Source: Escherichia coli
GTDB taxonomy: Bacteria; Pseudomonadota; Gammaproteobacteria; Enterobacterales; Enterobacteriaceae
Length of the DNA stretch: 64,000 nt
Reading direction: 5' to 3' (one strand)
Assembly (NCBI RefSeq): GCF_003790525.1
Contig: NZ_CP033635.1
How positions within the stretch are numbered: the first letter of the stretch is position 1; each line of letters opens with the position of its first letter. The notes beneath the pieces were generated by a model, which searched no databases, was not told the origin of the DNA, and worked only from the letters and a program-made list of their open reading frames with translations. Below, piece after piece: positions 2,834 to 58,530 of the stretch. The translations under genes and the position numbers were made by a program.

Positions 2834-3523
2834 ATGAAAAAAATTATCGCATTGATGTTGTTTTTGACATTCTTTGCCCACGCGAACGACTCCGAGCCTG
2901 GCAGCCAGTATTTAAAGGCAGCAGAGGCTGGGGACCGACGCGCACAATATTTTCTTGCCGACAGCTGGTTTAGCTCCGGCGATTTGAGCAAAGCCGAATA
3001 TTGGGCACAGAAAGCCGCCGACAGCGGTGATGCTGATGCCTGCGCGCTGTTAGCGCAGATCAAAATCACCAATCCGGTCAGTCTGGACTATCCACAAGCA
3101 AAAGTTCTTGCAGAGAAAGCGGCGCAAGCGGGCAGTAAAGAAGGTGAAGTAACGCTGGCGCATATTCTGGTAAATACGCAAGCGGGTAAACCGGATTATC
3201 CAAAGGCGATTTCGCTGTTAGAAAACGCCTCGGAAGATCTGGAGAACGACTCTGCCGTCGATGCCCAAATGCTGCTTGGTTTGATTTACGCCAACGGCGT
3301 GGGCATTAAGGCCGACGATGACAAGGCAACCTGGTATTTCAAACGCAGCTCTGCGATTTCCCGAACCGGTTATTCCGAGTACTGGGCGGGAATGATGTTC
3401 TTAAACGGTGAAGAAGGTTTTATCGAGAAGAACAAACAGAAGGCGCTGCACTGGTTGAATCTGAGCTGTATGGAAGGGTTTGATACCGGGTGTGAAGAGT
3501 TTGAAAAATTAACTAACGGTTAA
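2834..3523 (+). CDS. yjcO: Sel1/TPR-like repeat periplasmic protein
   Basis: 229 aa ORF with signal peptide and repeated Sel1-like A-x-A-Q/YxLA motifs; position between fdhF and gltP. Confidence 0.85.
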   Translation: MKKIIALMLFLTFFAHANDSEPGSQYLKAAEAGDRRAQYFLADSWFSSGDLSKAEYWAQKAADSGDADACALLAQIKITNPVSLDYPQAKVLAEKAAQAGSKEGEVTLAHILVNTQAGKPDYPKAISLLENASEDLENDSAVDAQMLLGLIYANGVGIKADDDKATWYFKRSSAISRTGYSEYWAGMMFLNGEEGFIEKNKQKALHWLNLSCMEGFDTGCEEFEKLTNG

Positions 3524-3675
3524 TGTAGGCCTGATAAGACGCGTTAATCGTCGCATCAGGCGTTGATGTCGGATGCGGCGTAAACGCCTTATCCGACCTA
3601 CAAAATCACGCTAAATCAGGCTATTGCGCTGTCTGACGTAGGCCTGATAAGACGCGGCAAGCGTCGCATCAGGCA
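3524..3675. repeat. REP/BIME cluster (palindromic units)
   Basis: Repeated GTAGGCCTGATAAGACGCG...CGCATCAGGC and GCCGGATGCGGCGTAAACGCCTTATCCG units in inverted orientation. Confidence 0.85.
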
Positions 3676-3714
3676 TCCACACATTGCCGGGTGGATATCC
3701 CCGGCAATCTTCAA

Positions 3715-5028
3715 TTATTGATCCGCAGTTTTATCAAATTTGCCCAGCACTTCGCGCTCATAAGCCAGCGCTTTCTTACGGTCAAATTTGTGTTCCCACT
3801 TGGCAATCACCAGCACCGCCAGCGCATTACCCACCACGTTCAGCGCAGTACGCGCCATATCGAGGATACGGTCAACACCGGCAATAAATGCCAGACCTTC
3901 CAGCGGAATACCTACGCTACCCAGCGTTGCCAGCAGCACCACAAACGACACGCCCGGCACGCCAGCAATCCCTTTCGAGGTCACCATCAGCGTCAGCACC
4001 AGAATGATTTCCTGCCAGATGGACAGGTCAATGCCATACAACTGCGCGATGAAAATAGCGGCAATACTTTGATACAGCGTCGAACCATCAAGGTTAAAAG
4101 AGTAACCGGTCGGCACCACGAAACTGGTGATCGACGCCGGTGCACCGTAGGCTTCCATCTTCTCAATAATTCGCGGCAGCACGCTTTCAGAACTGGCAGT
4201 GGAGTACGCCAGAATCAGCTCATCTTTCAGAATACGAATCAGGATCCAGACGCTTAACCCGCACAGGCGCGCCACAATTCCCAGCACTACCAGCGCGAAG
4301 AACAGAATGGCGAAATGCACCAGCAGCACCAGTTTCGCCAGTGGCCACAGAGAAGAGAAACCAAAGTTAGCCACCGTCACCGCAATCAGCGCAAACACAC
4401 CCACCGGTGCATAACGCATCACCATGTGAGTCACTTTAAACATGGTTTCAGAGATGGAGCGGAACACGGTCACCAGCGGTTCACGATGCGTCGCGGGCAG
4501 GGATGAAAGCCCCAGACCAAACAGCACCGAGAAGAAGATGATCGGCAGCATTTCGCCTTTCGCCATCGACGCCACAATGTTCGTCGGCACCAGCGACAAA
4601 ATCGTGCCCATAATGCCGTGGGAACTGCTTTGTACCGCTTCCGTAGTGCTCTGATATTTCGAGATATCGACGGTCGCCAGCTGCGACATATCCACCCCGG
4701 CACCGGGCTGGAAGACGTTCGCCAGAGTAATCCCCAAAATGATGGCGACGGTGGTGATCACCTCGAAGTAAATAATGGTTTTCGCGCCAATACGCCCGAG
4801 CTGTTTGGCATCACCAACACCCGCGATACCCACCACCAGCGTGGAGATCACAATCGGCACAACAATCATTTTGATCAGATGGATGAAGATATCACCCGCC
4901 GGAGAGAGCAAATTGACGACCAGCCAGTCGCGACTGTCGCTATGGTAGTGCAGGTAGCTTCCCAGGAGAATGCCCAGCACCATAGCAAACAGAATCTGCC
5001 AGGCCAGGCTGAATTTTATATTTTTCAT
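3715..5028 (-). CDS. gltP: Glutamate/aspartate:proton symporter (DAACS family)
   Basis: 437 aa polytopic membrane protein matching GltP; hairpin terminator at about 3685..3705. Confidence 0.92.
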   Translation of the reverse strand: MKNIKFSLAWQILFAMVLGILLGSYLHYHSDSRDWLVVNLLSPAGDIFIHLIKMIVVPIVISTLVVGIAGVGDAKQLGRIGAKTIIYFEVITTVAIILGITLANVFQPGAGVDMSQLATVDISKYQSTTEAVQSSSHGIMGTILSLVPTNIVASMAKGEMLPIIFFSVLFGLGLSSLPATHREPLVTVFRSISETMFKVTHMVMRYAPVGVFALIAVTVANFGFSSLWPLAKLVLLVHFAILFFALVVLGIVARLCGLSVWILIRILKDELILAYSTASSESVLPRIIEKMEAYGAPASITSFVVPTGYSFNLDGSTLYQSIAAIFIAQLYGIDLSIWQEIILVLTLMVTSKGIAGVPGVSFVVLLATLGSVGIPLEGLAFIAGVDRILDMARTALNVVGNALAVLVIAKWEHKFDRKKALAYEREVLGKFDKTADQ

Positions 5029-5966: not shown

Positions 5967-6346
5967 CGCTTCGCCCTCACTCGCCAGAGGATCAGTGCCA
6001 TCAGCAGTAACAACACCACTGGCAGAGCCCACAATACCAGCGTCTGACCCGTTAACGGTGGGTTATAGCGAACAAAATCTCCGTAGCGTTCGGTCATCCA
6101 GCCAATGATTTCGACTTCACTTTTCCCCTCTTCCACCATGCTGTAAACCTGATGGCGCATACTGACCGCCACCGGCGCATTGGATTCCAGTAAGTTCTGA
6201 TTCTGACACTGCGGACAACGTAACTGGCTGGCAATATTTAACGCCTGTTGCTGTTGTTGCGGATTGGCGAATTGCCAGGTGTCTACGACCTGAGCACGCG
6301 CAAAACAGGTAAATAACAGCAGTAGCGTGAGAAGTCCTTTATTCAT
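5963..6346 (-). CDS. nrfF: CcmH-like thiol-disulfide cytochrome c biogenesis protein
   Basis: 127 aa, signal peptide, CPQCQNQ motif. Confidence 0.88.
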
Positions 6347-6391
6347 CGCGCTTCCTCCCCCGCCATCCGCTTAACAATGCGCCCGCAATCA

Positions 6392-8020
6392 TCAACAATC
6401 CTCCCCCCAGATCCAGCGCACACCGCTTTGTACATACAAACGAAAAGCGTAACGATCCGGCCCAGTTTTCTCCCCCATGACCGCATACCAGTCATGGATG
6501 CCGTTCCAGCGAATTGACGGTTCCATCATTTGCTGACGGCGTGCTTCATAAAAACGCCGCTCCGGCGTCAGTTCACCAATACGTTGCTGATGGTCAAACA
6601 GTGCCACTATCGCTTTTTCGCTGGTGTAATTGCCTCTGGCTTGCAGATCGAGACGCTCAAAACGGAAGGCGTATCCTGCCAGCGTCACCTGCTGACCCGG
6701 CTGTAAATTCAGGCTGATCTCCTGACGGCTGACGCTGGAGACCACGATCCCTGCGGCAAATAACAGCACGCCCGCATGCGCCAGCAGCGCCGGAAGCTGC
6801 ACGCGTTTGCCAGAGACAAACGTCGCCAGCACAATCACCACCAGCATCAACAGACCAAACGGTAACGTCGCACGGTTAAAATACGGCGCGCCAACGGAGA
6901 GGCGTCCCCAGCCCAGCAGGCCGTAAATCATCGGATAAAGCGTTCCCACCAGCACGATCAGTAGCACTGCGCAAAACAGCAACAGCGTAGCGAGGATTAA
7001 CATTTCCCGCGATAACCCCGAAAAACGCACCGCCGGGCCACCGTCCCGCGCTCGCCAGCCATACAGAGTCAGAGACGCAAGGCTAATCAGTGCAAACAGG
7101 CTGAACAACGGCACGGCGCGAACGTTATCCAGCGCGAACGCATGAACCGAAACCAGAATGCCAGAACGGACAATTAAGGTGCCCAGCAGCGACAGCATCA
7201 GAGTAACTATCGCCAGTAACAGCGACCAGTGGCGGAAAATCCCCCGCTGGCGTGTCAGGGACAAACTGTGCAGCAGCGCAGTGGCAGAAAGCCAGGGTAA
7301 TAAAGAGGCGTTTTCCACCGGATCCCAGAACCACCAGCCGCCCCAGCCCAGTTCGCAATAGGCCCACCAGGAACCGAGGATGATCCCCGCCGTTAATGCC
7401 CCCCAGCCTGGTAGTGCCCAGCGCCAGCAAATTCGGGCGCAGGTACCATCAAACTCGCCGCGCAGTAAACTCGCCAGCGCCACGCTCGCCGCCACCATCA
7501 AACCGCCGTAGCCGAGATAAAGCAGCGGTGGATGAAAGATAAGACCGGGATGTTGCAGCATCGGATTGAGATCGCGGCCTTCGATTGCTGGCGGAAATAT
7601 CCGCACGAAGGGATCGGACCACAGCACTACAAACAGTAGCAGTGCGGCGAGCATGAGAGATAAAACGGCTAGCGTCAGCGGAAATAGCGGATCGGTTTGC
7701 TGCCGATAATGCCAGGCAAACAGCGCGCTCCAGGCGGAAAGCAGCAGCACCCAAAGCAGCAGCGAACCTTCATGACCGCCCCACACCGCCGCCAGTTTGA
7801 GTTCCCACGACAGCAGGCTGTAGCTATGTTGGGCGACATAAATGACCGAGAAATCGCTGATGAGAAAACAATACGTCAGTACGCCAAAGGCGAGCAGCAG
7901 GAGCGCGAACTGCGCCAGAATGCCGATGCAAGTGAGTCGCATCATGGCAGGCCAGCGCAACCGCACTCCCGCAAAGGCCGTCAACGGGGTCAACACGTTG
8001 ACCCCGAGACTTAACAACAA
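6392..8020 (-). CDS. nrfE: CcmF-like heme lyase (cytochrome c nitrite reductase maturation)
   Basis: Large polytopic protein with WGGWWFWDPVEN heme-handling motif; longest ORF starts with TTG at 8020, in-frame ATG at 7945 is an alternative start. Confidence 0.85.
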   Translation of the reverse strand: MLLSLGVNVLTPLTAFAGVRLRWPAMMRLTCIGILAQFALLLLAFGVLTYCFLISDFSVIYVAQHSYSLLSWELKLAAVWGGHEGSLLLWVLLLSAWSALFAWHYRQQTDPLFPLTLAVLSLMLAALLLFVVLWSDPFVRIFPPAIEGRDLNPMLQHPGLIFHPPLLYLGYGGLMVAASVALASLLRGEFDGTCARICWRWALPGWGALTAGIILGSWWAYCELGWGGWWFWDPVENASLLPWLSATALLHSLSLTRQRGIFRHWSLLLAIVTLMLSLLGTLIVRSGILVSVHAFALDNVRAVPLFSLFALISLASLTLYGWRARDGGPAVRFSGLSREMLILATLLLFCAVLLIVLVGTLYPMIYGLLGWGRLSVGAPYFNRATLPFGLLMLVVIVLATFVSGKRVQLPALLAHAGVLLFAAGIVVSSVSRQEISLNLQPGQQVTLAGYAFRFERLDLQARGNYTSEKAIVALFDHQQRIGELTPERRFYEARRQQMMEPSIRWNGIHDWYAVMGEKTGPDRYAFRLYVQSGVRWIWGEDC

Positions 8021-8075
8021 CGCCAGAAAACCGACTTCAGGAAGGAATACGTCCAGAAACCACCTCTGTTCTGGC

Positions 8076-9032
8076 TTACGCCACCGTTAACTGCCCGGCG
8101 TAGAGAATGAAAAAGCGCAGCATCAACACGCCGACCAGGCTGGCCCCACACGCCGCCAGCACGGCAGGAATGCCGGAACTACGATTCACCCACGGTTTGA
8201 GCAACATTGGCACAATCAACCCCAGCCCGGCGACACCAAGCCAGAACCACCACGTCCAGAAACCGCCGCCCAATGCCGCCACCAGCGCACGCACTTTACC
8301 GTCATCGCCCAGCGCCAGACCGACAAAAAACGCCACCAGCAGGAAGATTTCGCCCCATACCACAGGGATCTCCATACGGTGTACAAAGTGCGCTTCCGTG
8401 GAATGCGGGTTACTGCGTTGGCGTATCGCCATGGCGATCAGCGCCACCGCCGCACCGGACGAGATGCCGGAGAAGAGGAACAGCACCGGCAGGATCGGGT
8501 TATTGAGGAACGGATACGATTTCAGCGCCGATAGCAGAAAGCCGGTATAAGCCCCCAGCAGCACCGCCAGCACCAGCATCAATGTTTCCAGTCCGCGATG
8601 AACGGGCGTCAGCAGGCTCAGAACCTTTTGCACGATCCCCAGCTTCGGCAACCAGCGTTGTTGCAGGGCAAGCAAATCATGTTCAAAGATTTTCGCCAGC
8701 CACAGCACCAGCACCACCATGTAAAGCTGAAACAGCATCACCCCCATCGACATCACCGAGGTAAAACTGTAGTGGAACATCAGCTTCCAGAAGGTCCACG
8801 GTCTTGTCAGGTGGAAGACGAGGATCAACAGACCGAGGATCACCGCGCCAGGTCCGACAATCAGCGTGGTGCGCAGCAACGTACTGTCTGCACCGCCCGC
8901 CTGCGGGTAGAAGCGACGTAACAGCACGGCCAGCGTCACCAGACCGGCAGAAATACCAATCAAAAACAGGTAGATGGCAATCGGCCAGTCCCACACCAGT
9001 GATTCAAAATGAAATGCGGAAGTCTGCGTCAT
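8076..9032 (-). CDS. nrfD: NrfD membrane quinol-oxidising subunit
   Basis: 318 aa polytopic membrane protein; overlaps nrfC by 4 bp. Confidence 0.9.
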   Translation of the reverse strand: MTQTSAFHFESLVWDWPIAIYLFLIGISAGLVTLAVLLRRFYPQAGGADSTLLRTTLIVGPGAVILGLLILVFHLTRPWTFWKLMFHYSFTSVMSMGVMLFQLYMVVLVLWLAKIFEHDLLALQQRWLPKLGIVQKVLSLLTPVHRGLETLMLVLAVLLGAYTGFLLSALKSYPFLNNPILPVLFLFSGISSGAAVALIAMAIRQRSNPHSTEAHFVHRMEIPVVWGEIFLLVAFFVGLALGDDGKVRALVAALGGGFWTWWFWLGVAGLGLIVPMLLKPWVNRSSGIPAVLAACGASLVGVLMLRFFILYAGQLTVA

Positions 9033-14308: not shown

Positions 14309-16269
<1,961 letters not shown>

Positions 16270-16303
16270 TCTCCACTAGCCTCTGGTCACCTGACCAACG
16301 GTA

Positions 16304-16333
16304 AAAAGGTGCGATGTACTGCACCTTTTTACC
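16304..16333. terminator. Bidirectional hairpin terminator between convergent actP and yjcE
   Basis: AAAAAGGTGCgatgtactGCACCTTTTT, A-run and T-run flanking a GC stem. Confidence 0.75.
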
Positions 16334-16350
16334 GATTACACCGCCAAGCG

Positions 16351-18000
16351 TTATTGGTTCTCTTCAATCAGCAACGCTTCAAGCAAATCGAGATCGTGCA
16401 ATAATTTTTGCAGCGTTTCGTTACTGATCTCCCGCGTGGCGCGCAGGTGGTACAGTTCAGCACGTTCAGAACGCAATGCCGCCAGACGGAAGCGACGCTC
16501 CAGGTTCTCTTCCAGGATTGAACTTTCTACATCATTACGTCCATCGGCGCGACGACGCAGGTTACCAATGACGCGAGAACTAACCTCTGTGAGCAGCTGG
16601 TTATCGATATTCTCTTCGGTATCCGCCGCCAGACGCTCCTCCATTTTCTGGATCGCCACAATCGCCACTTCTGCCGTTGCCGCTCGCGCAATACGTTCCT
16701 CTTTCAATTGTTGCGAATGGTCCGCGACTTCAATGTGTTGTAGCAGAATAGGCAACATCACCACGCCGACAAACAGCGAGAAGAGAATGACACCAGCCGC
16801 CAGGAACACCAGCTCATAGCGCGCCGGGAAGACGTTACCATCCGGCAAGAGCAGCGGGATAGAGAGCACACCGGCCAGAGTGATCGCCCCACGCACCCCG
16901 GCGAAAGACGCGATCAGGATTTCTCGTGTAGTCCACGAACCAAACTCCATCGGCTTCTTCTTCAGGAAGCGGTTGCTGAACTTTTTCATCGTCCACAGCC
17001 AGCCGAAACGGACCAGCATCAGCGCCGCATAAATCAGAATGATATCGGTAAACAGCATCCAGATTTCGACGTTAGGGTCGATTTCTGCCGCCATCAGCGA
17101 CGTCTCCAGAATACCCGGCAGCTGCAGACCTAACAGCAGGAATACCATGCCGTTAAAGACAAATTCCAGCATCGCCCAGGTACTGTTTGCGCGCAGGCGC
17201 ATTGCCAGCGGCGCACGGCGCATCACACCGGAGCGGGTGATGGTCATCCCGGCGGCAACCGCAGCGAGGATGCCGGAAACGCCAATATGTTCGGCAATCA
17301 GATAAGAAGCGAATGGCAGCAAGAACAGTAGAACAATCTGCGTCGCGGGTTCATCACCGCCCCAGCGGCTGAGGAATCGCAGCGAGCGACCGTACAGCCA
17401 GCTCACCACAAAACCGGCGAGAATACCGCCAATGGCCACTTTCATAAATTCGACCGTCGCACCACCGACGGTGAAGATCATCGTCCCCATCGCCACTGCC
17501 ACGGCAAACTTCAACGACACCAGACCGGAGGCGTCATTCATCAACGCTTCGCCCTGCAAAATGCCCATGATTTTTTTCGGGATGCGCCCTTCGCCAACAA
17601 TCCCGGAGAGCGCCACAGCATCGGTCGGAGAAAGCACCGCCGCCAGCGCAAAGGCGGGGATCAGCGGAATGCCCGGCACCACCCAGTAAATAAGGAAGCC
17701 AATGCCGACCACGGTGACCACCACCAGCGCCAGCGCGAGGCCGAAAATCTCTCGCCCATGTTCGAGAAATTCACGGGTCGGCGTTTTCCAGCCATCAGCG
17801 AACAGCAACGGCGGGATAAACAAGACTAAAAAGAGTTCAGGATCAAACTCCACATGCAAACCAAACGTCGGCCACGCCAGTAGCGCACCGATGGCGATTT
17901 GCATAAGCGGAAGCGGGATCTGAAAGGGCATGACACGAGTGACCACCCCGGACAGCGAGACCACGAGGGTCATTATCAGTATGGTGAAGAAGATTTCCAT
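16351..18000 (-). CDS. yjcE: CPA1 family Na+(K+)/H+ exchanger
   Basis: 549 aa polytopic membrane protein with cytoplasmic C-terminal domain. Confidence 0.9.
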   Translation of the reverse strand: MEIFFTILIMTLVVSLSGVVTRVMPFQIPLPLMQIAIGALLAWPTFGLHVEFDPELFLVLFIPPLLFADGWKTPTREFLEHGREIFGLALALVVVTVVGIGFLIYWVVPGIPLIPAFALAAVLSPTDAVALSGIVGEGRIPKKIMGILQGEALMNDASGLVSLKFAVAVAMGTMIFTVGGATVEFMKVAIGGILAGFVVSWLYGRSLRFLSRWGGDEPATQIVLLFLLPFASYLIAEHIGVSGILAAVAAGMTITRSGVMRRAPLAMRLRANSTWAMLEFVFNGMVFLLLGLQLPGILETSLMAAEIDPNVEIWMLFTDIILIYAALMLVRFGWLWTMKKFSNRFLKKKPMEFGSWTTREILIASFAGVRGAITLAGVLSIPLLLPDGNVFPARYELVFLAAGVILFSLFVGVVMLPILLQHIEVADHSQQLKEERIARAATAEVAIVAIQKMEERLAADTEENIDNQLLTEVSSRVIGNLRRRADGRNDVESSILEENLERRFRLAALRSERAELYHLRATREISNETLQKLLHDLDLLEALLIEENQ

Positions 18001-18150
18001 GCGTTCCCTGTTTGCGATGTTTTTTATGATCTGAGAAAGGCGTTATGCCTGAATTCTCATTTTTTCAGAATATCGCAAAAGCTCACACAATGTGCGGAGA
18101 AAATAAAAACGGGCAGCCATTGCCACCCGTTTTCAGAATCCTATGTAAGA

Positions 18151-19500
18151 TTAGATAGCCCAGCCACCCGCATAGAAGGTCACCAGCGCCACGGCAATAA
18201 CGACCGTACCGATGTTCAACTTGCGCCATTCGCCGGAAACCAGACGACCAATCACCAGAGTCGCGAAGCCGATCATGATGCCTGTTACGATGTTACAGGT
18301 CAGCACGATGAATACCGCCGTAACCAGACCCGCCATCGCATCAACAAAATCAGCAAAGTCGATTTTCGCCACGTTGCTCAGCATCAGCAGGCCAACGTAC
18401 ATCAACGCCGGAGCCGTTGCGTACCCCGGAACGAGGTAAGAGAGCGGAGAGAGGAACAGAATCAGCAGGAACAGCACGCCAACGGTGATAGCCGTCAACC
18501 CGGTTTTACCGCCCGCCGCCGTACCCGCCGCAGACTCGATGTATACCGCTGCCGGAGCTGCACCCACCAGGCCAGAGAAAACGCTGCTCATGGAGTCAGT
18601 GGTCAGTGCTTTCCCGCCGTCGATGATCTGCCCGTCTTTATCCAGCAGGTTCGCCTGACCGGCGACGGCGCGGATAGTTCCGGTGGCATCAAATACTGCC
18701 GTCATCACCAGCGCCAGAACGCTTGGCAGGACTACAGGATTCAGCGCGCCCATAATATCCAGGCTGCCAATCAGTGAATTGCCGTTTTCATCGCTCAATG
18801 AAGGCATAGCGAAAACGCCGGAGAAATGGACGTTAGGATCGAAGATCAAACCGACAATTGAGATACCGATAATGGTCAGCAGAATGCCACCAGGGACTTT
18901 CAGTTTTTCCAGGCCGATGATCACCGCCAGACCTACCAGTGACATCATCACCGGAAAGGTCGTGAAATCACCCAGCGCAACGGGCAGACCATCAAGCGGG
19001 TTTTTAATCACCAGACCGACACCATTCGCAGCAATCAGCAGCAGGAACAGACCGATACCGATCCCCGTGCCGTGCGCCACACCGTGCGGCAAGTTGCGCA
19101 AAATCCAGCTACGGATACCCGTGGCAGAAATGACCGTAAACAGCACACCCATCAGGAACACGGCACCCAGCGCGACAGGTACGCTAATATGTTGCCCCAG
19201 CACCAGACTGAATGCGGTAAACGCCGTCAGGGAGATGGCGCAACCAATCGCCAACGGCAGATTAGCCCACAGACCCATCACGATAGAACCGAGTCCGGCA
19301 ACCAGACAGGTCGCAACGAAAACTGCCGCAGGCGGGAAGCCCGCTTTACCCAACATGCCTGGAACGACGATAACCGAGTAGACCATCGCCAGAAACGTTG
19401 TTAACCCGGCAACCACTTCCTGACGGACAGTGCTTCCACGTTGTGAAATTTTAAACCAGGCGTCGAGTGAACCGCCGGTACGCGCTGATGGCGTAGACAT
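18151..19500 (-). CDS. ghxP: Guanine/hypoxanthine permease (NCS2/AzgA-like)
   Basis: 449 aa polytopic permease matching YjcD/GhxP. Confidence 0.9.
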
Positions 19501-19614
19501 AAGAAAACATCCCCTGAGAGTTTAATTTTCGTCAAGATGCGTGGCGGACAATCCCCTGCCAGCGAAACGTTATCTTCCTGCTCCAGGTTTGCGACAAATT
19601 GGTGCGTCGCAAAA

Positions 19615-19630
19615 AAGCAAACGTTTAGCT
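19615..19630. promoter_or_regulatory. Putative PurR operator upstream of ghxP
   Basis: AAGCAAACGTTTAGCT resembles the PurR box core GCAAACGTTT; additional GCAAACG repeats at about 19658 and 19753. Confidence 0.35.
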
Positions 19631-19911
19631 CCGCGCATACAAAACGGGTGGTAAAAAAGCAAACGATTATCCGGCGATCATAGCGGCTTTTTCAACCGAA
19701 GTTTGCTGCTTTTTTCTCTTTTATTGTCTTGACGATGAAAAACCAGGCAATTGATGCGCAAACGTTATCGTCGATGCGCAAGATTGCAGCGTTATCGAAC
19801 CGTATACCGTTCAGGATTGCGATAAAAAATCGCCTGAGATGACAAAAATATTGCGGCTAAAAAGTGTACTTTTACACTGGCGAAGAAACGCCGGTGACAT
19901 ACAATTAAAGC

Positions 19912-20052
19912 ATCAACACCAACCGGAACCTCCACCACGTGCTCGAATGAGGTGTGTTGACGTCGGGGGAAACCCTCCTGTGTACCAGCGGGATAGAGAG
20001 AAAGACAAAGACCGGAAAACAAACTAAAGCGCCCTTGTGGCGCTTTAGTTTT
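19912..20052 (+). ncRNA. sraL: Small RNA SraL (RyjA), convergent with and overlapping the 3' end of soxR
   Basis: Intergenic ghxP-soxR region ending in hairpin AAAGCGCCCttgtGGCGCTTT plus T-run on the + strand; sequence matches my recollection of SraL; 5' end approximate. Confidence 0.5.
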
Positions 20053-20509
20053 GTTCATCTTCCAGCAAGCGTGCGCCTGTGCCTTCTTCTCCTAAGCGGT
20101 CGCCCGGGTTACGCAATGGGCAATCACTGCGCGAAAGGCAGCCACAACCAATACATCCGTCCAGTTCGTCACGCAGCGCCACTAAGGTATGAATGCGCCG
20201 ATCCAACTCTTCTCGCCATTGGGACGAAAGCTGTTTCCACTCTTTCGCACTTAATGTATGCCCTTCGGGCAACACGCCAAATGCTTCACGAATGGTCGCC
20301 AGCGGAATGCCAATACGCTGAGCAATTTTGATGATTGCGACATATCGCAACACATCACGTTTATATCGCCGCTGATTGCCACTATTACGGATACTGCTAA
20401 TCAACCCTTTGCTTTCATAGAAATGCAGCGCCGATACCGCCACACCGCTGCGTTTTGCCACTTCGCCGGGGGTTAGCAGCGCTTTAATGCGGGGTAATTT
20501 CTTTTCCAT
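20045..20509 (-). CDS. soxR: Redox-sensing MerR-family regulator with [2Fe-2S] cluster
   Basis: 154 aa, HTH N-terminus, C-terminal [12 protein letters not shown] cluster motif. Confidence 0.95.
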
Positions 20510-20520
20510 AAATCGCTTTA

Positions 20521-20538
20521 CCTCAAGTTAACTTGAGG
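20521..20538. promoter_or_regulatory. SoxR operator within the soxS promoter
   Basis: Perfect 18-bp palindrome CCTCAAGTTAACTTGAGG between divergent soxR and soxS. Confidence 0.85.
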
Positions 20539-20594
20539 AATTATACTCCCCAACAGATGAATTAACGAACTGAACACTGAAAAGAGGCAGATTT

Positions 20595-20918
20595 ATGTCC
20601 CATCAGAAAATTATTCAGGATCTTATCGCATGGATTGACGAGCATATTGACCAGCCGCTTAACATTGATGTCGTCGCAAAAAAATCAGGCTATTCAAAGT
20701 GGTACTTACAGCGGATGTTCCGCACGGTGACGCATCAGACACTTGGTGATTACATTCGCCAACGCCGCCTGTTGCTGGCCGCCGTTGAGTTGCGCACCAC
20801 CGAGCGTCCGATTTTTGATATCGCAATGGACCTGGGTTATGTCTCGCAGCAGACCTTCTCCCGCGTTTTCCGTCGGCAGTTTGATCGCACTCCAAGCGAT
20901 TATCGCCACCGCCTGTAG
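20595..20918 (+). CDS. soxS: AraC-family superoxide response activator
   Basis: 107 aa double HTH protein. Confidence 0.95.
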   Translation: MSHQKIIQDLIAWIDEHIDQPLNIDVVAKKSGYSKWYLQRMFRTVTHQTLGDYIRQRRLLLAAVELRTTERPIFDIAMDLGYVSQQTFSRVFRRQFDRTPSDYRHRL

Positions 20919-20920
20919 TT

Positions 20921-22507
20921 TTATTGCCCGCGCGTTAACTCCCGCGCGGGTAATTGCTCCATCCATTGCATAAACACCTGCGGCGGCATCGCCTTCGCAA
21001 AGAACCATCCCTGGCAATAGCGCACGCCGCGTTTGCGCAGCCAGTTAACCTGTTCCTCAGTTTCGACGCCTTCAGCGATCGTTTTTAACCCCAGACTGTG
21101 CGCCAGCTCGATGATGTGTTCCGCAATCAAATGACTGGTTTTATGGGTGGTCAGCGTCTCAACAAACGATTTATCGATTTTCAAAATATCGACATTCAAT
21201 GATTTAAGGTTATGCAAGTTAGAGTAGCCAATACCAAAATCATCAATTGCCACTTCGTAACCAGCCTGGCGGAAAGCCAGAATAATTGGTGTCATTTTGT
21301 CGACATCAAGAAATGCATGTTCAGTCACTTCAAATTTAATTTGCTGTGGACGCACCGCGTATTGCTCTGTTTTCTGATTGGTTCGCGCTATCAACCGTGA
21401 CGTATGAAAATCGGAGGCCGACAGGTTAATAGAAACATAGCGATCGGCATGTGTTGCCAGGTATGCGCCCAGATCGCGGAAGACATTATCAATAACATAA
21501 TCAGTTACCTGTCCGATCATCCCCTCCTTTTCTGCCAGCGGAATAAACTCTGCCGGATTCATTACTTGCCCCTGCTCACCAGGCCAACGTAACAATGCTT
21601 CAGCCCCGATACATTTTTCTGTTTTGATATCGATTATTGGCTGGTAATAAAGGCAAAGTTGATGTTTTTCGAGGGCGCGTTGCAATTTGCGTTTGGGAGA
21701 CAAATAGTTTTGTCGAATACGTAGCCAGAGTAATAGCAGAACAAGACTCCCCAAAATACCGGCGGGTAACGCAAAAATAAGATGATTATAAAAATGCGCT
21801 ATAAGACGTTGATATGAAGTCGCAACAATGGCCGCAATTGGGCGTTTTGTCGAATAAACTGTCGCATATAAATAGCCATTTCTTTGTACAGTTAAATCCT
21901 TCAAATGAATCAGTGGAGAAAACGTTGCTGCCGAGGCCTCGTTGCTTAACGAGAAAAAGGTTTTCGTTACCGTATCATATACACCCCATTGCAATGTCGG
22001 ATCATCAGACATCACTTCACTCCAGAAGAGAGGGTTGATGACCGCCACATAATTTCCCCGCTGCATATAGGTCATTTTATAGCCAGAGAAAAAAGGCGTA
22101 TCGCGGTAATAATAGATAGAAACGTTAGGTTCACGCTTATAATCGGCCGGTGCAATCGTATAGCCGTTTACAGGCGCTATCAGCGATGAGCATAAAAAAT
22201 GGTTATCACGGGCATAGATCAATTCATTAATATAAAGATAGCCACGAATAATATTCAACATTCGCTTTTGATGGGCTGGGGTGCAAACTTGCCCCTGATA
22301 GCGTTCAGCTGCATCGCTCACTAAATCTGCCTGACGAATGACCAGCTCAGATTTATCCAACGCCAGCTGAGCAAAGGTTCGGAGCTGATTATTCACTTCT
22401 GATTTTGCCCAAAAGAAGGCAATCCATAGCGACAGAATGATGGGAAAGAGAACTAAAAAGATAATGCCCGGCAACGCCAGTAATTGGTGTCGTGCACGAT
22501 GACTCAT
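20921..22507 (-). CDS. pdeC: c-di-GMP phosphodiesterase with periplasmic sensor (CSS) and EAL domain
   Basis: 528 aa from MSHRARHQ; two TM segments, C-terminal EAL-like domain. Confidence 0.88.
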
Positions 22508-54499: not shown

Positions 54500-55390
54500 A
54501 TGGCAATGGTCCAACCGAAATCGCAAAAAGCACGTTTGTTTATTACTCACCTGCTACTGCTACTTTTTATCGCGGCGATTATGTTCCCGCTGCTGATGGT
54601 CGTCGCCATCTCGCTGCGTCAGGGGAACTTCGCGACTGGCAGCCTGATCCCGGAGCAAATCTCCTGGGATCACTGGAAACTGGCGTTAGGTTTTAGTGTG
54701 GAACAGGCTGATGGTCGCATTACGCCACCGCCATTCCCGGTACTGCTGTGGCTGTGGAACTCGGTAAAGGTCGCCGGGATTTCCGCGATTGGCATTGTGG
54801 CGCTCTCCACCACCTGCGCCTACGCTTTCGCCCGTATGCGCTTTCCAGGCAAAGCGACGCTGCTGAAAGGAATGCTGATTTTCCAGATGTTCCCGGCAGT
54901 ACTTTCACTGGTCGCGTTGTATGCGTTGTTTGATCGTCTGGGTGAGTACATTCCATTCATTGGTCTGAATACTCACGGCGGCGTAATTTTCGCGTATCTG
55001 GGCGGGATTGCGCTGCATGTCTGGACCATCAAAGGTTATTTCGAAACCATCGACAGTTCGCTGGAAGAAGCGGCGGCGCTGGATGGTGCGACACCGTGGC
55101 AGGCCTTCCGCCTTGTCCTGTTGCCGCTGTCAGTACCGATTCTGGCGGTGGTGTTCATCCTGTCGTTTATCGCTGCCATTACTGAAGTTCCGGTCGCGTC
55201 GCTATTACTGCGTGACGTAAACAGCTACACCCTGGCTGTGGGGATGCAGCAATACCTCAACCCGCAAAACTACCTGTGGGGTGACTTTGCCGCCGCTGCC
55301 GTGATGTCTGCATTACCGATCACCATCGTCTTCCTGCTGGCTCAACGCTGGCTGGTCAACGGCCTGACGGCAGGTGGTGTGAAAGGTTAA
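54500..55390 (+). CDS. malG: Maltose ABC transporter permease
   Basis: 296 aa; [23 protein letters not shown] loop. Confidence 0.95.
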
Positions 55391-55460
55391 AGATGTTGTT
55401 CTGCCAATGTTATGCCGCTGCACCCTCAACTTACGTTATCCCAACTTGTGACTGTTATTC

Positions 55461-55485
55461 GGCGCTCCACGGAGCGCCTTTTTTT
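55461..55485. terminator. Terminator hairpin between malG and psiE
   Basis: GGCGCTCCacggAGCGCC followed by T7. Confidence 0.75.
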
Positions 55486-55894
55486 ACTCCCGCTTCAGCC
55501 GTTTCGAATTACACAGCCACAGGGTGATCACCAGTAACAGGATCGCTGCCGAGTAGATCAACACATCCAGTGGCGATTTATGATCGACGATGATCAAGCG
55601 CACAATGGCGGTGATCCCAATATAGACAAAGTAACGTAGCGGGAAGTGAAAACCGGACTGAAAGTACTTCACAATCAGCGCGATAAATTCGAAATAGAGA
55701 AAGTAAACCACCAGCCCTTCTACCAGCTCATATTTGCTGGTTTGTTCTGGCGCGAACAGCACATCAGCCAGATGCACCGTTTCTTTGCCGAGGAAGACAA
55801 CCAAAATAAGGCCGAGGCACAGCAGGCCAAGATTGAGTACGGTCTGCAAAATGGTGGAGATAAACTCCACGCGCGGACGAGAGAGTGACGTCAT
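55484..55894 (-). CDS. psiE: Phosphate-starvation-inducible membrane protein
   Basis: 136 aa four-TM protein [14 protein letters not shown]. Confidence 0.92.
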
Positions 55895-56108
55895 AGCAGT
55901 ACCTCCTTCACAGTGGCGAGCTTCCTGTATAACGCAAAAATGTGACGGAGATCTATATTTTTTGTGTATGTTTTGTTCAGCTCAATTAAGTGGGCATCTC
56001 CCATCAACGTCGCATCTGGCAAAACACACAGCCCAAAAAAATCACCCATTCAGGTGATTCCCAGCCACCAGCAATGCGCGAAAAATCGACAATGTTCCTC
56101 TGGAACAA

Positions 56109-56387
56109 ATGAAACGTAACCTGATAAAGGTGGTAAAAATGAAGCCTTATTTTGCTGCTTTGATGTTATCAGTCTCTGTTCTTCCTGCTTATGCCGGTCC
56201 GCTCGGTACTGCTGATAAAGCCGACCTACCGCAAAGCAATGTCTCCAGCCCAATGATGGCCCAGTCGCTCAGGCAACCAGACCTGCAACCAATATCGACG
56301 GACAGGAAGACAGAATGTTTTCGCCTTTACACACCAGATCGCAAACCGGGGGTGAACTGCGTTCCTGATGGCTCGACAGGCCATTAA
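56109..56387 (+). CDS. yjbT: Small secreted protein YjbT
   Basis: 92 aa ORF with signal peptide (second Met at 56139 is an alternative start); two Cys. Confidence 0.6.
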   Translation: MKRNLIKVVKMKPYFAALMLSVSVLPAYAGPLGTADKADLPQSNVSSPMMAQSLRQPDLQPISTDRKTECFRLYTPDRKPGVNCVPDGSTGH

Positions 56388-56433
56388 GAATAAAGGTGCC
56401 AGTGAGTGCGAAAACTGGCACCTTTCCCATGAC

Positions 56434-58530
56434 TTAGCGGAAATTGACGCTACGGTCGCTGGTCATGTCATACAACTGGAACTTACGCCCAAGTTGCTGA
56501 CCACCGTCACGCGTCAGCGGCGTCCAGCCAATTGCCGCACGACTGCGTGTTGGGCCAGACGAGAAGAGATCCAGCGGTACAGAGACATATACGCCTTTGG
56601 TGAAGTCCCCTTCGCCGTACTCCTCTTTCGAAACATTGGTGATCGTGGCATAGCCACCCACCACCACGCCGCTATCAAAGCGTTTGGCGATCTCCAGCGT
56701 GCCGCCTTTATCCCCTGCCAGATACTGCCCGATGCTGGCTTTCACTAACACATCCTGAGCGAAAGATGGCGTCCAGTAGGCGGTCAGATGTCCGGTTTTC
56801 ACGCTGTAATCGGTGAATTTCATCATATCTTTTGCGCTACGCCAGTCGCGCTGTTTAACGTAGTTGGCATCCAGACCAAACGCCCAGTTGCTGTCCAGCG
56901 GGCGATACAACACTTCAGCCCCCACGCCGCCAAACATGGTTTCGAGATAACCTCCGTAGACCTGACCGTAGAAGCCGTTGCCCAGATGCTGGAAGTAGTT
57001 GGCTTGCAGGTTATTCACATAGACATCATTCTGCACATACTCGCGCACATGGGTACGAACGCGCGGTAAGTGCGAGTCCTGCGGTGGATTGGTGTAGTTA
57101 AACTTGTCGTAGTTGTTGGCAAGGTTAGCAAACAGGCTGCCGGTGGTGAGCAGATGCTCCGTCAGCCACAAATCCGCCGTTCCCATCACGCCCAGCTGAT
57201 ACATGTAAAAGTTTTCCGGGCCACCGACCGACTGGTTCAGCACCGGATCGATATGGAAATCAAAGCGTGATTTGTCAATATACCAGCCCTGCTCGGTGGA
57301 CTTCGGAACCACTGGCTCGACGCGTTTTTGCGCCAGCTTCGTTTCGTGGCCCAACGGCTCTCCGGCGAGATGATTTTTCAGGCTGGCGACATCGGTTTCC
57401 GTCGTCACCTGCGGCATGTTAAGGCGATTTTCCGTAATGCGGATCGTTTTGATCCCATCCGGCAGATCGTTCATCACGATCCGATTAGCACGGATGATCC
57501 CTTCGCGCGAATCACGATATTTCACCTGCTCGCCGGTAACATACAGCGTATCGCCTTTCGCCTGGATCTGCGGATCGGCCAGTCCGGCGTTGTATTTCAA
57601 CAGCGTTAACTGATTCGCCACCACCGAATGCTGCAAAATGGCATCCTGTGGCTGCGGTTGATATTGCGGGCGGGCGTTATCGTTATACGAAGGACGCAGA
57701 TCGTTAAAGTTGGTGCGCAGCGTGACGCCAAACATAAAGGTGTTGCCACGTTCATAGCTAAGGTTAACGTCGGCCCAATCGGTAACGCGATAAATCGCCC
57801 CGACGTTAAACTTACTTTTTTGCTCCAGCTTCCCGGCAAAATCCTGCTGATAATTATTGCCTTCATACTCCAGTTTCAGGCGCAGCGGTTGCCAGGGCGT
57901 CTGGTATTCCACGCCGCCAAACAGTGAGGCCGGGCCGTGGAACATCTGGCTACCGTCGATAGATCCCGCCTGTTTATAGCTGTTATCGCGATAGCAATAT
58001 TTATCACTGGCTGAACAGAGCGGATTTTTCACATTACCGCTGGTGCCCAGATATCCCCAGCCCAGGCCGAGCGTAAAATCGAACGGCCCCCAGGCTTTGC
58101 TGGCGACAAGATATTCCGCATCAAACAGCCCCGTACCGCCGATATCCCGCGCACCAACCGCCACTTGCGGCAGCCAATAACTCTCTTCCCACAAACGCAG
58201 TTTGAGATCGAAGGCTTTATCTTTATACGTTTGATCACCAGAGAACGCTTCGACGCTGCTGTACTGCCGGGTGCGCACGTCGGTGTAGCGCAGCGTTGTT
58301 TCCAGCCACGGGAAGAGTTGCACTGAAGCTGAGTAATAACGGTACTGATCGTTATCGCGATAGTTCAGGCTCAACTCCCCTTCCCGCGCCATGCGCGCGG
58401 TGGGCGTTTGTAATAATCCTACGCCACCGAAATCCGACTGCGACGGACCAATGGGCGCAGGATATGTTTCGCCGTAGCAAGCTGTGCTAATGCCCAGCGC
58501 CAGTAAGCTAAGCAGATGTCTTTTTTTCAT
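56434..58530 (-). CDS. yjbH: Outer-membrane beta-barrel lipoprotein-like protein (exopolysaccharide locus)
   Basis: 698 aa, signal peptide with lipobox-like LGISTAC, C-terminal aromatic residue. Confidence 0.85.

Follow-up and report, generated by a model that had tools for sequence, protein, structure and literature searches.

The xylE-less malG–psiE junction of Escherichia coli SMS-3-5: probably an originally empty site

The absence of xylE from between malG and psiE in the E. coli DNA analyzed here is an ordinary presence/absence polymorphism at the phylogroup level, which has already been reported. Probably, the lineage of strain SMS-3-5 never carried xylE at this position, and the arrangement malG–malH–psiE is the original enterobacterial layout. 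According to this proposal, malEFG would have ended ancestrally in the MalH 3′UTR and its terminator, with the T-run directly adjoining the stop codon of psiE, which is transcribed convergently. A self-contained cassette of 1.8 kb, consisting of a XylR/CRP-type promoter region, xylE, and a terminator, would then have been inserted here, separating the T-run from the psiE stop codon. This event would date to the common ancestor of phylogroups A, B1, E, and probably C, that is, of the K-12 side of E. coli. Phylogroups B2, D, F, and probably G, as well as the other Escherichia species, would have kept the empty site. SMS-3-5 would take up xylose via the XylFGH ABC transporter, the low-affinity proton symporter being absent.

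The malG–psiE junction and the malH gene

The gene malG occupies positions 54500–55390 on the plus strand of the window, i.e., of the whole 64-kb stretch of DNA analyzed here. It is the last gene of malEFG and encodes a maltose ABC transporter permease of 296 aa, identified from the open reading frame (ORF) list and its translation; the corresponding RefSeq protein of SMS-3-5 (WP_001252058.1) is identical. The phosphate-starvation-inducible protein PsiE (136 aa; RefSeq WP_000202902.1), recognized in the same way, is encoded on the minus strand at 55484–55894. The two genes are convergent and separated by a spacer of 93 bp (55391–55483). Between positions 54900 and 55950, the sequence matches E. 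coli SMS-3-5 (NC_010498.1) at 100% identity, and the RefSeq annotation of that genome lists malG and psiE as neighbors, followed by yjbH and yjbG. A terminator scan revealed a single terminator-like site within the spacer, the Rho-independent terminator of malEFG/MalH (55461–55485, plus strand). Scan and RNA fold agree on the hairpin GGCGCTC-CACG-GAGCGCC, with a 7-bp stem and the 4-nt loop CACG at 55461–55478, followed by a T7 run at 55479–55485. The psiE stop codon (55484–55486, minus strand) shares the last two T residues of this tail on the opposite strand.

Searches of the 64-kb window with E. coli XylE (tblastn) and with the xylE cassette (blastn) yielded no match to a XylE-like sequence. 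Between malG and psiE, neither the ORF list nor a similarity search revealed an ORF of ~491 aa that would encode a Sugar_tr/MFS_1 domain. At the junction itself, we saw no IS element, inverted repeats, target-site duplication, extra sequence, or remnant. The initial annotation of this region had placed malG and psiE about 90 bp apart, with one hairpin terminator followed by the psiE stop codon, no MFS transporter ORF, xylE apparently absent, and neither an IS element nor an obvious scar at the junction; it had also given the K-12 order as psiE, xylE, malG. Its coordinates hold, the terminator is borne out by scan and fold, and the MG1655 annotation confirms the gene order. The absence of xylE agrees with the searches of the window and with the complementary genome counts described below, and no extra sequence was found that would indicate a scar. 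The reading of the spacer as a bare terminator has to be amended: the terminator is present, but the spacer is an annotated sRNA gene.

[quoted passage not shown] At the homologous position of K-12 MG1655, the ncRNA b4807 is annotated as the last 8 nt of malG plus the next 95 nt, and the window matches all 103 nt of K-12 malH, terminator included, with 100% identity. A scan of positions 55200–56500 with Rfam 15 gave no family match, MalH included. MalH has been described as an Hfq-binding sRNA derived from the malG 3′UTR; in K-12, for which alone it is known, a stable Hfq-bound fragment represses porin mRNAs (PMC8081044). A perfect hairpin plus T-run is found in 56 of 57 distinct enterobacterial versions of the malH terminator, and the changes in the stem are compensatory among these versions (GGCGCTC/GAGCGCC, GGCGGCC/GGCCGCC, and AGCGGCC/GGCCGCT). 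Because the spacer is the malH gene, it is conserved across the family, and the xylE indel stops to the base at the malH 3′ end. K-12 carries the xylE upstream region 3′ of malH, whereas the malH U-tail of the window runs into the psiE stop codon, with an overlap of 2 nt in the xylE-less haplotype. The physical overlap of the MalH terminator with the psiE stop codon in xylE-negative strains would place the site under constraint.

In both K-12 MG1655 and BL21, the gene order is psiE–xylE–malG. The 93-bp spacer corresponds base for base to the malG-proximal intergenic sequence of these strains through the last T of the T-run, after which psiE follows immediately in the window. Compared with K-12 and BL21, malH is 100% identical, the PsiE protein is identical, and the yjbH flank is common to both arrangements; the divergence between K-12/BL21 and SMS-3-5 up to the junction is ordinary for one species. 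In the xylE-positive strains BL21 and K-12, the malH T-run is separated from the psiE stop codon by an additional 1797 bp. This cassette is composed of a 57-nt filler, an upstream regulatory region, xylE (491 aa), and a hairpin of its own (−20.4 kcal/mol, z = −5.4, from folding) with a T5 run. The left junction of BL21 reads ...GAGCGCC-T7-CTTTCGTC... (GCGCC-T7-CTTTCG) and the right junction ...GGCGTGCTGAC-T5-ACTCCCGC (GCTGAC-T5-ACTCCC), while that of SMS-3-5 reads ...GAGCGCC-T7-ACTCCCGC. The unoccupied xylE site lies at 55479–55486 (strand not applicable): BLAST alignments of xylE-positive genomes break at 55481–55485, and the exact point is ambiguous within the T-run. Short direct repeats flanking xylE in positive strains, which the initial annotation had proposed to look for, are indeed present in BL21 and K-12 as the T7 run to the left and the T5 run to the right of the cassette, corresponding to 5 nt of microhomology.

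Next to the junction, BL21 and SMS-3-5 are nearly identical: three differences were counted in the final 200-nt window scored for the left flank and one in the initial 200 nt of the right flank. When flank divergence was calculated in sliding windows for BL21 versus SMS-3-5 and versus the outgroups, no imported tract was seen at the junction. A local peak of flank divergence between BL21 and SMS-3-5 lies upstream of psiE at ~55975–56065, between the psiE start (55894) and a yjbT-like ORF (56109–56387); this region is ~55 bp shorter than in K-12. The REP-like element that K-12 carries upstream of psiE (..gccggataagccgcgcctggcggcgcatccggca..) is missing or different in SMS-3-5.

Distribution of xylE in E. 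coli and in the outgroups

Among 5426 complete E. coli genomes, malG and psiE are contiguous in 1786, about a third, and the xylE segment is present in 3639, with an xylE coverage of at least 80% in 3626. Together, the 1786 and 3639 genomes make up all 5425 that match the locus. Since the contiguous and the xylE-bearing sets are complementary, no xylE-negative genome has xylE elsewhere. The order seen in K-12 cannot be taken as the default of the species at malG–psiE.

The gene arpA, located ~18 kb from the xylE locus, is a Clermont phylogroup marker, and arpA-negative strains belong to B2, F, or G. The distribution of xylE was linked to phylogroup by using arpA and xylE, fused into a single query, of which at least one half matched in 4118 genomes, with 7748 matching places in all. 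From these two numbers, we derived that both genes are present in about 3628 genomes, arpA without xylE in 479, and neither gene in 1308 (n = 5426). The arpA-only genomes form one group; all six that were sampled carry an intact espL4-type allele, only 96–97% identical to BL21 arpA. Given these arpA/xylE classes and the arpA allele type, xylE tracks the deep clonal structure of the species. The divergent arpA-positive, xylE-negative group is most likely phylogroup D, judging from the allele type and from the Clermont scheme.

Representative strains conform to this pattern. SMS-3-5, which we take to belong to phylogroup F and which is arpA-negative here, is devoid of xylE, and its aceK and iclR genes are adjacent (5967–8532 of the fetched locus). 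CFT073 (B2) is likewise xylE-negative, with aceK next to iclR, no arpA, and a psiE–malG gap of 93 nt, and a gap of the same length was observed in the xylE-negative strain SCU-313, in which arpA/espL4 is present. The 93-nt spacer is 100% identical in CFT073, SMS-3-5, and SCU-313, and RefSeq annotates the malG/psiE adjacency in all three. The presence of xylE was verified in K-12, BL21, ATCC 8739, W, O104:H4, O157:H7 EDL933, and O55:H7. In the literature, xylE is listed as one of the genes for which B1A, a sublineage of the EB1A lineage, is enriched (PMC6896753). Outside the window, the SMS-3-5 genome harbors an L-sorbose (sor) PTS operon between pepE and rluF (15168–21686 of the fetched locus), which is absent from BL21 and K-12 and occurs also in CFT073 and SCU-313.

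For the outgroups, species-representative genomes were scanned with PsiE, and 80 loci were kept, E. fergusonii not being among them; a literature search on xylE in E. fergusonii found nothing. The succession of malG, terminator, T-run, and psiE stop codon without xylE was observed in E. albertii, E. whittamii, Escherichia sp. E1V33, and Escherichia sp. MOD1-EC7003, whose malG is 97% identical to that of E. coli. Enterobacter, Citrobacter koseri, Leclercia, Lelliottia, Trabulsiella, Pluralibacter, Phytobacter, Cedecea, Klebsiella pneumoniae, and others have the empty layout as well, and most of the Enterobacteriaceae sampled show the terminator/T-run/psiE-stop junction without xylE. Because the same empty junction occurs in four other Escherichia species and in most Enterobacteriaceae sampled, the xylE gene of K-12 was most likely gained in the E/A/B1/C lineage, a direction that we infer by parsimony from the outgroups. 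Long malG–psiE spacers were found in Enterobacteriaceae sp. RIT691 (1780 nt), Escherichia sp. ESNIH1 (562 nt), and Pseudescherichia vulneris (724 nt). They have no similarity to the xylE cassette beyond the malG-proximal (malH) end and contain other inserted sequence.

The initial annotation had considered a clean deletion and, alternatively, that xylE is an insertion of the K-12 lineage and its absence ordinary strain variation. It is the latter to which the distribution in E. coli and the outgroup junctions point. A clean deletion is unsupported, since the same junction is present in a third of E. coli, in other Escherichia species, and in most Enterobacteriaceae examined.

Gain versus loss of the xylE cassette

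We regard it as unlikely that the ancestor of E. coli, or already that of the genus, possessed xylE at this site and that the gene was excised exactly when the T-run behind the malH terminator recombined with the one behind the xylE terminator. Such a deletion would have to be assumed for the ancestor or ancestors of phylogroups B2, D, F, and G and, independently, for the remaining Escherichia species. The T7 and T5 direct repeats bracket the 1797-bp cassette, and a deletion between them would leave exactly the scar-free junction of SMS-3-5, which speaks for a loss and against a gain. The flanks bear in the same direction, being native and near-identical in both haplotypes with no foreign flank visible. 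However, a deletion would require at least five independent, identical, scar-free events (in E. albertii, E. whittamii, E1V33, MOD1-EC7003, and one to three E. coli lineages), whereas a gain is a single event. A xylE-positive ancestry is not borne out by the sampled non-coli Escherichia or by the B2, D-like, and F representatives, which all share the xylE-less junction. In a spread sample, moreover, all 53 rows that carried a BL21-type arpA also had xylE, which limits clean loss to less than ~2% of the ~3600 genomes of the xylE-positive clade, and the losses that were seen in this clade are IS1-mediated or partial.

These losses have left marks. In E. coli PCN061, IS1A replaces xylE, psiE, and yjbT through yjbE, and the xylE upstream region is joined to the pgi side (2905–4282 of the fetched locus); this is a scarred secondary loss inside the xylE-positive clade. 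In E. coli strains 961 and PRO_A-1478-6M-A, IS1 resides inside xylE. Beyond E. coli, the 388-nt malG–psiE spacer of Citrobacter braakii ATCC 51113 is a decayed xylE (4409–4796 of the fetched locus); what remains of the Citrobacter cassette are its upstream region, two short stretches from its interior, and its 3′ end with the terminator. Salmonella enterica has an identical PsiE protein with and without xylE at the same malG–psiE locus. The indel comprises 1698 bp between TTTAT repeats. Of the sequence on either side of xylE in the positive allele, the common xylE-negative allele retains 72 nt, made up of a left piece of 27 nt and a hairpin of 45 nt. By its sequence, the xylE-negative Salmonella allele looks like a TTTAT microhomology deletion of xylE, a resemblance that favors a deletion also in E. 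coli. The indel boundaries differ between Salmonella and E. coli, however, and the empty site of the latter is without extra sequence. The SMS-3-5 site bears no mark of the PCN061, IS1, C. braakii, or Salmonella kinds. An IS- or transposon-mediated rearrangement was rejected on account of the missing extra sequence at the junction, with which the IS1 loss in PCN061 contrasts.

A further point against a gain is that a protein search in clusters of 90% identity identified no donor of the E. coli xylE. The nearest named non-coli XylE proteins, from Salmonella, Citrobacter, K. oxytoca, and Entomohabitans, show 88–94% protein and 82–85% nucleotide identity. Compared with Citrobacter, Salmonella, and K. 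oxytoca, the E. coli gene has 82–85% nucleotide identity overall and about 57–61% at third codon positions. malG is equally diverged between the genera, as a long vertical residence of xylE in Escherichia, and hence a later deletion, would give. Yet the comparison of xylE with malG was rejected as a test of vertical descent versus transfer: the genera are approximately equidistant, and the inserted K. oxytoca copy appears equally "host-like." The divergence of xylE therefore fits a transfer from any unsampled genus, too. The GC and GC3 values of xylE versus its flanks proved uninformative for E. coli; for K. oxytoca, a GC3 of 57% for xylE versus 73% for malG is only suggestive. No natural plasmid vehicle was seen in a plasmid search with the cassette, which returned megabase E. 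coli records labeled as plasmid, engineered P. putida vectors, and distant homologues.

Very improbable is an allelic replacement, by which a xylE-positive ancestor of SMS-3-5 would have taken up the empty allele through homologous recombination in malG and psiE in a recent, lineage-specific event. A scar-free junction would be expected in this case as well, and the locus is flanked by highly conserved genes. The absence of xylE, however, spans essentially all arpA-negative genomes (1308) and a coherent arpA-positive group (479), the spacers of the B2, D-like, and F strains are identical, and no block of unusual divergence surrounds the junction. An assembly or sampling artefact, in which a real xylE was collapsed or lost from the sequence, can practically be dismissed, given that 1786 complete genomes, each assembled independently, show this junction, that it is annotated by RefSeq in SMS-3-5, CFT073, and SCU-313, and that nothing repetitive spans it that could have collapsed.

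The cassette in other genera and xylose uptake

The xylE cassette occupies the malG–psiE gap in subsets of four genera, namely the E/A/B1/C lineage of E. coli, some Salmonella, the Citrobacter freundii complex, and K. oxytoca. On the left, the malH T-run is followed by no filler in the C. freundii complex, a 22-nt filler in some strains of S. enterica, a 57-nt filler in the E. coli E/A/B1/C lineage, and 172 nt, including a 16-nt psiE duplicate, in K. oxytoca. In BLAST searches against all fetched loci, the 57-nt, 22-nt, and 172-nt fillers matched their own lineage only. The right-hand hairpin family (CACGCCGC...GCGGCGTG) is common to E. coli, Citrobacter, and K. oxytoca and is not found in Salmonella. 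The differing junctions and hairpins in the four genera indicate at least two insertion events and several losses at the site within the family.

In K. oxytoca, the 16-nt duplicate of the Klebsiella-type psiE 3′ end (TTATTCGCGTTTCAGG) lies directly after the malG terminator, to the left of xylE. Beyond it follow ~156 nt of further sequence (left side of the insert, ~6149–6320 of the fetched locus). Read from the sequence, the duplicate is the signature of an insertion anchored in psiE. The closest relatives of K. oxytoca, its sister species, have an empty site. The gap can thus receive an insert, as the proposed gain in E. coli requires. An ERIC-like element is located between malG and the terminator in K. 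oxytoca.

It is conceivable, if rather doubtful, that the gap between the malH T-run and the psiE stop codon is a recurrent target for a self-contained promoter–xylE–terminator cassette. If so, it would represent a favored intergenus route for a single chromosomal gene without mobile-element machinery, either by microhomology of terminator T-tracts or by illegitimate recombination anchored by psiE homology. The same cassette in the same gap of four genera is a modest example of accessory genes that come and go at a fixed chromosomal position.

XylE is a low-affinity D-xylose:H+ symporter. The xylFGHR region is present in 5424 of the 5426 complete E. coli genomes and is near-universal, so that xylE-negative strains keep the ABC transporter. 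The absence of xylE takes away the low-affinity proton symporter only; XylFGH stays. The absence of xylE together with the retention of xylFGH was published in 2010 for the enteroaggregative E. coli (EAEC) strain 042 of phylogroup D, which metabolized xylose less well than MG1655 in phenotype arrays, a deficit attributed to the missing symporter (PMC2808357). Strains 042 and SMS-3-5 both lack xylE but differ in phylogroup, with D for the former and an arpA-negative F for the latter. By analogy with the phenotype reported for 042, a somewhat weaker use of xylose would be expected for B2, D, and F strains.
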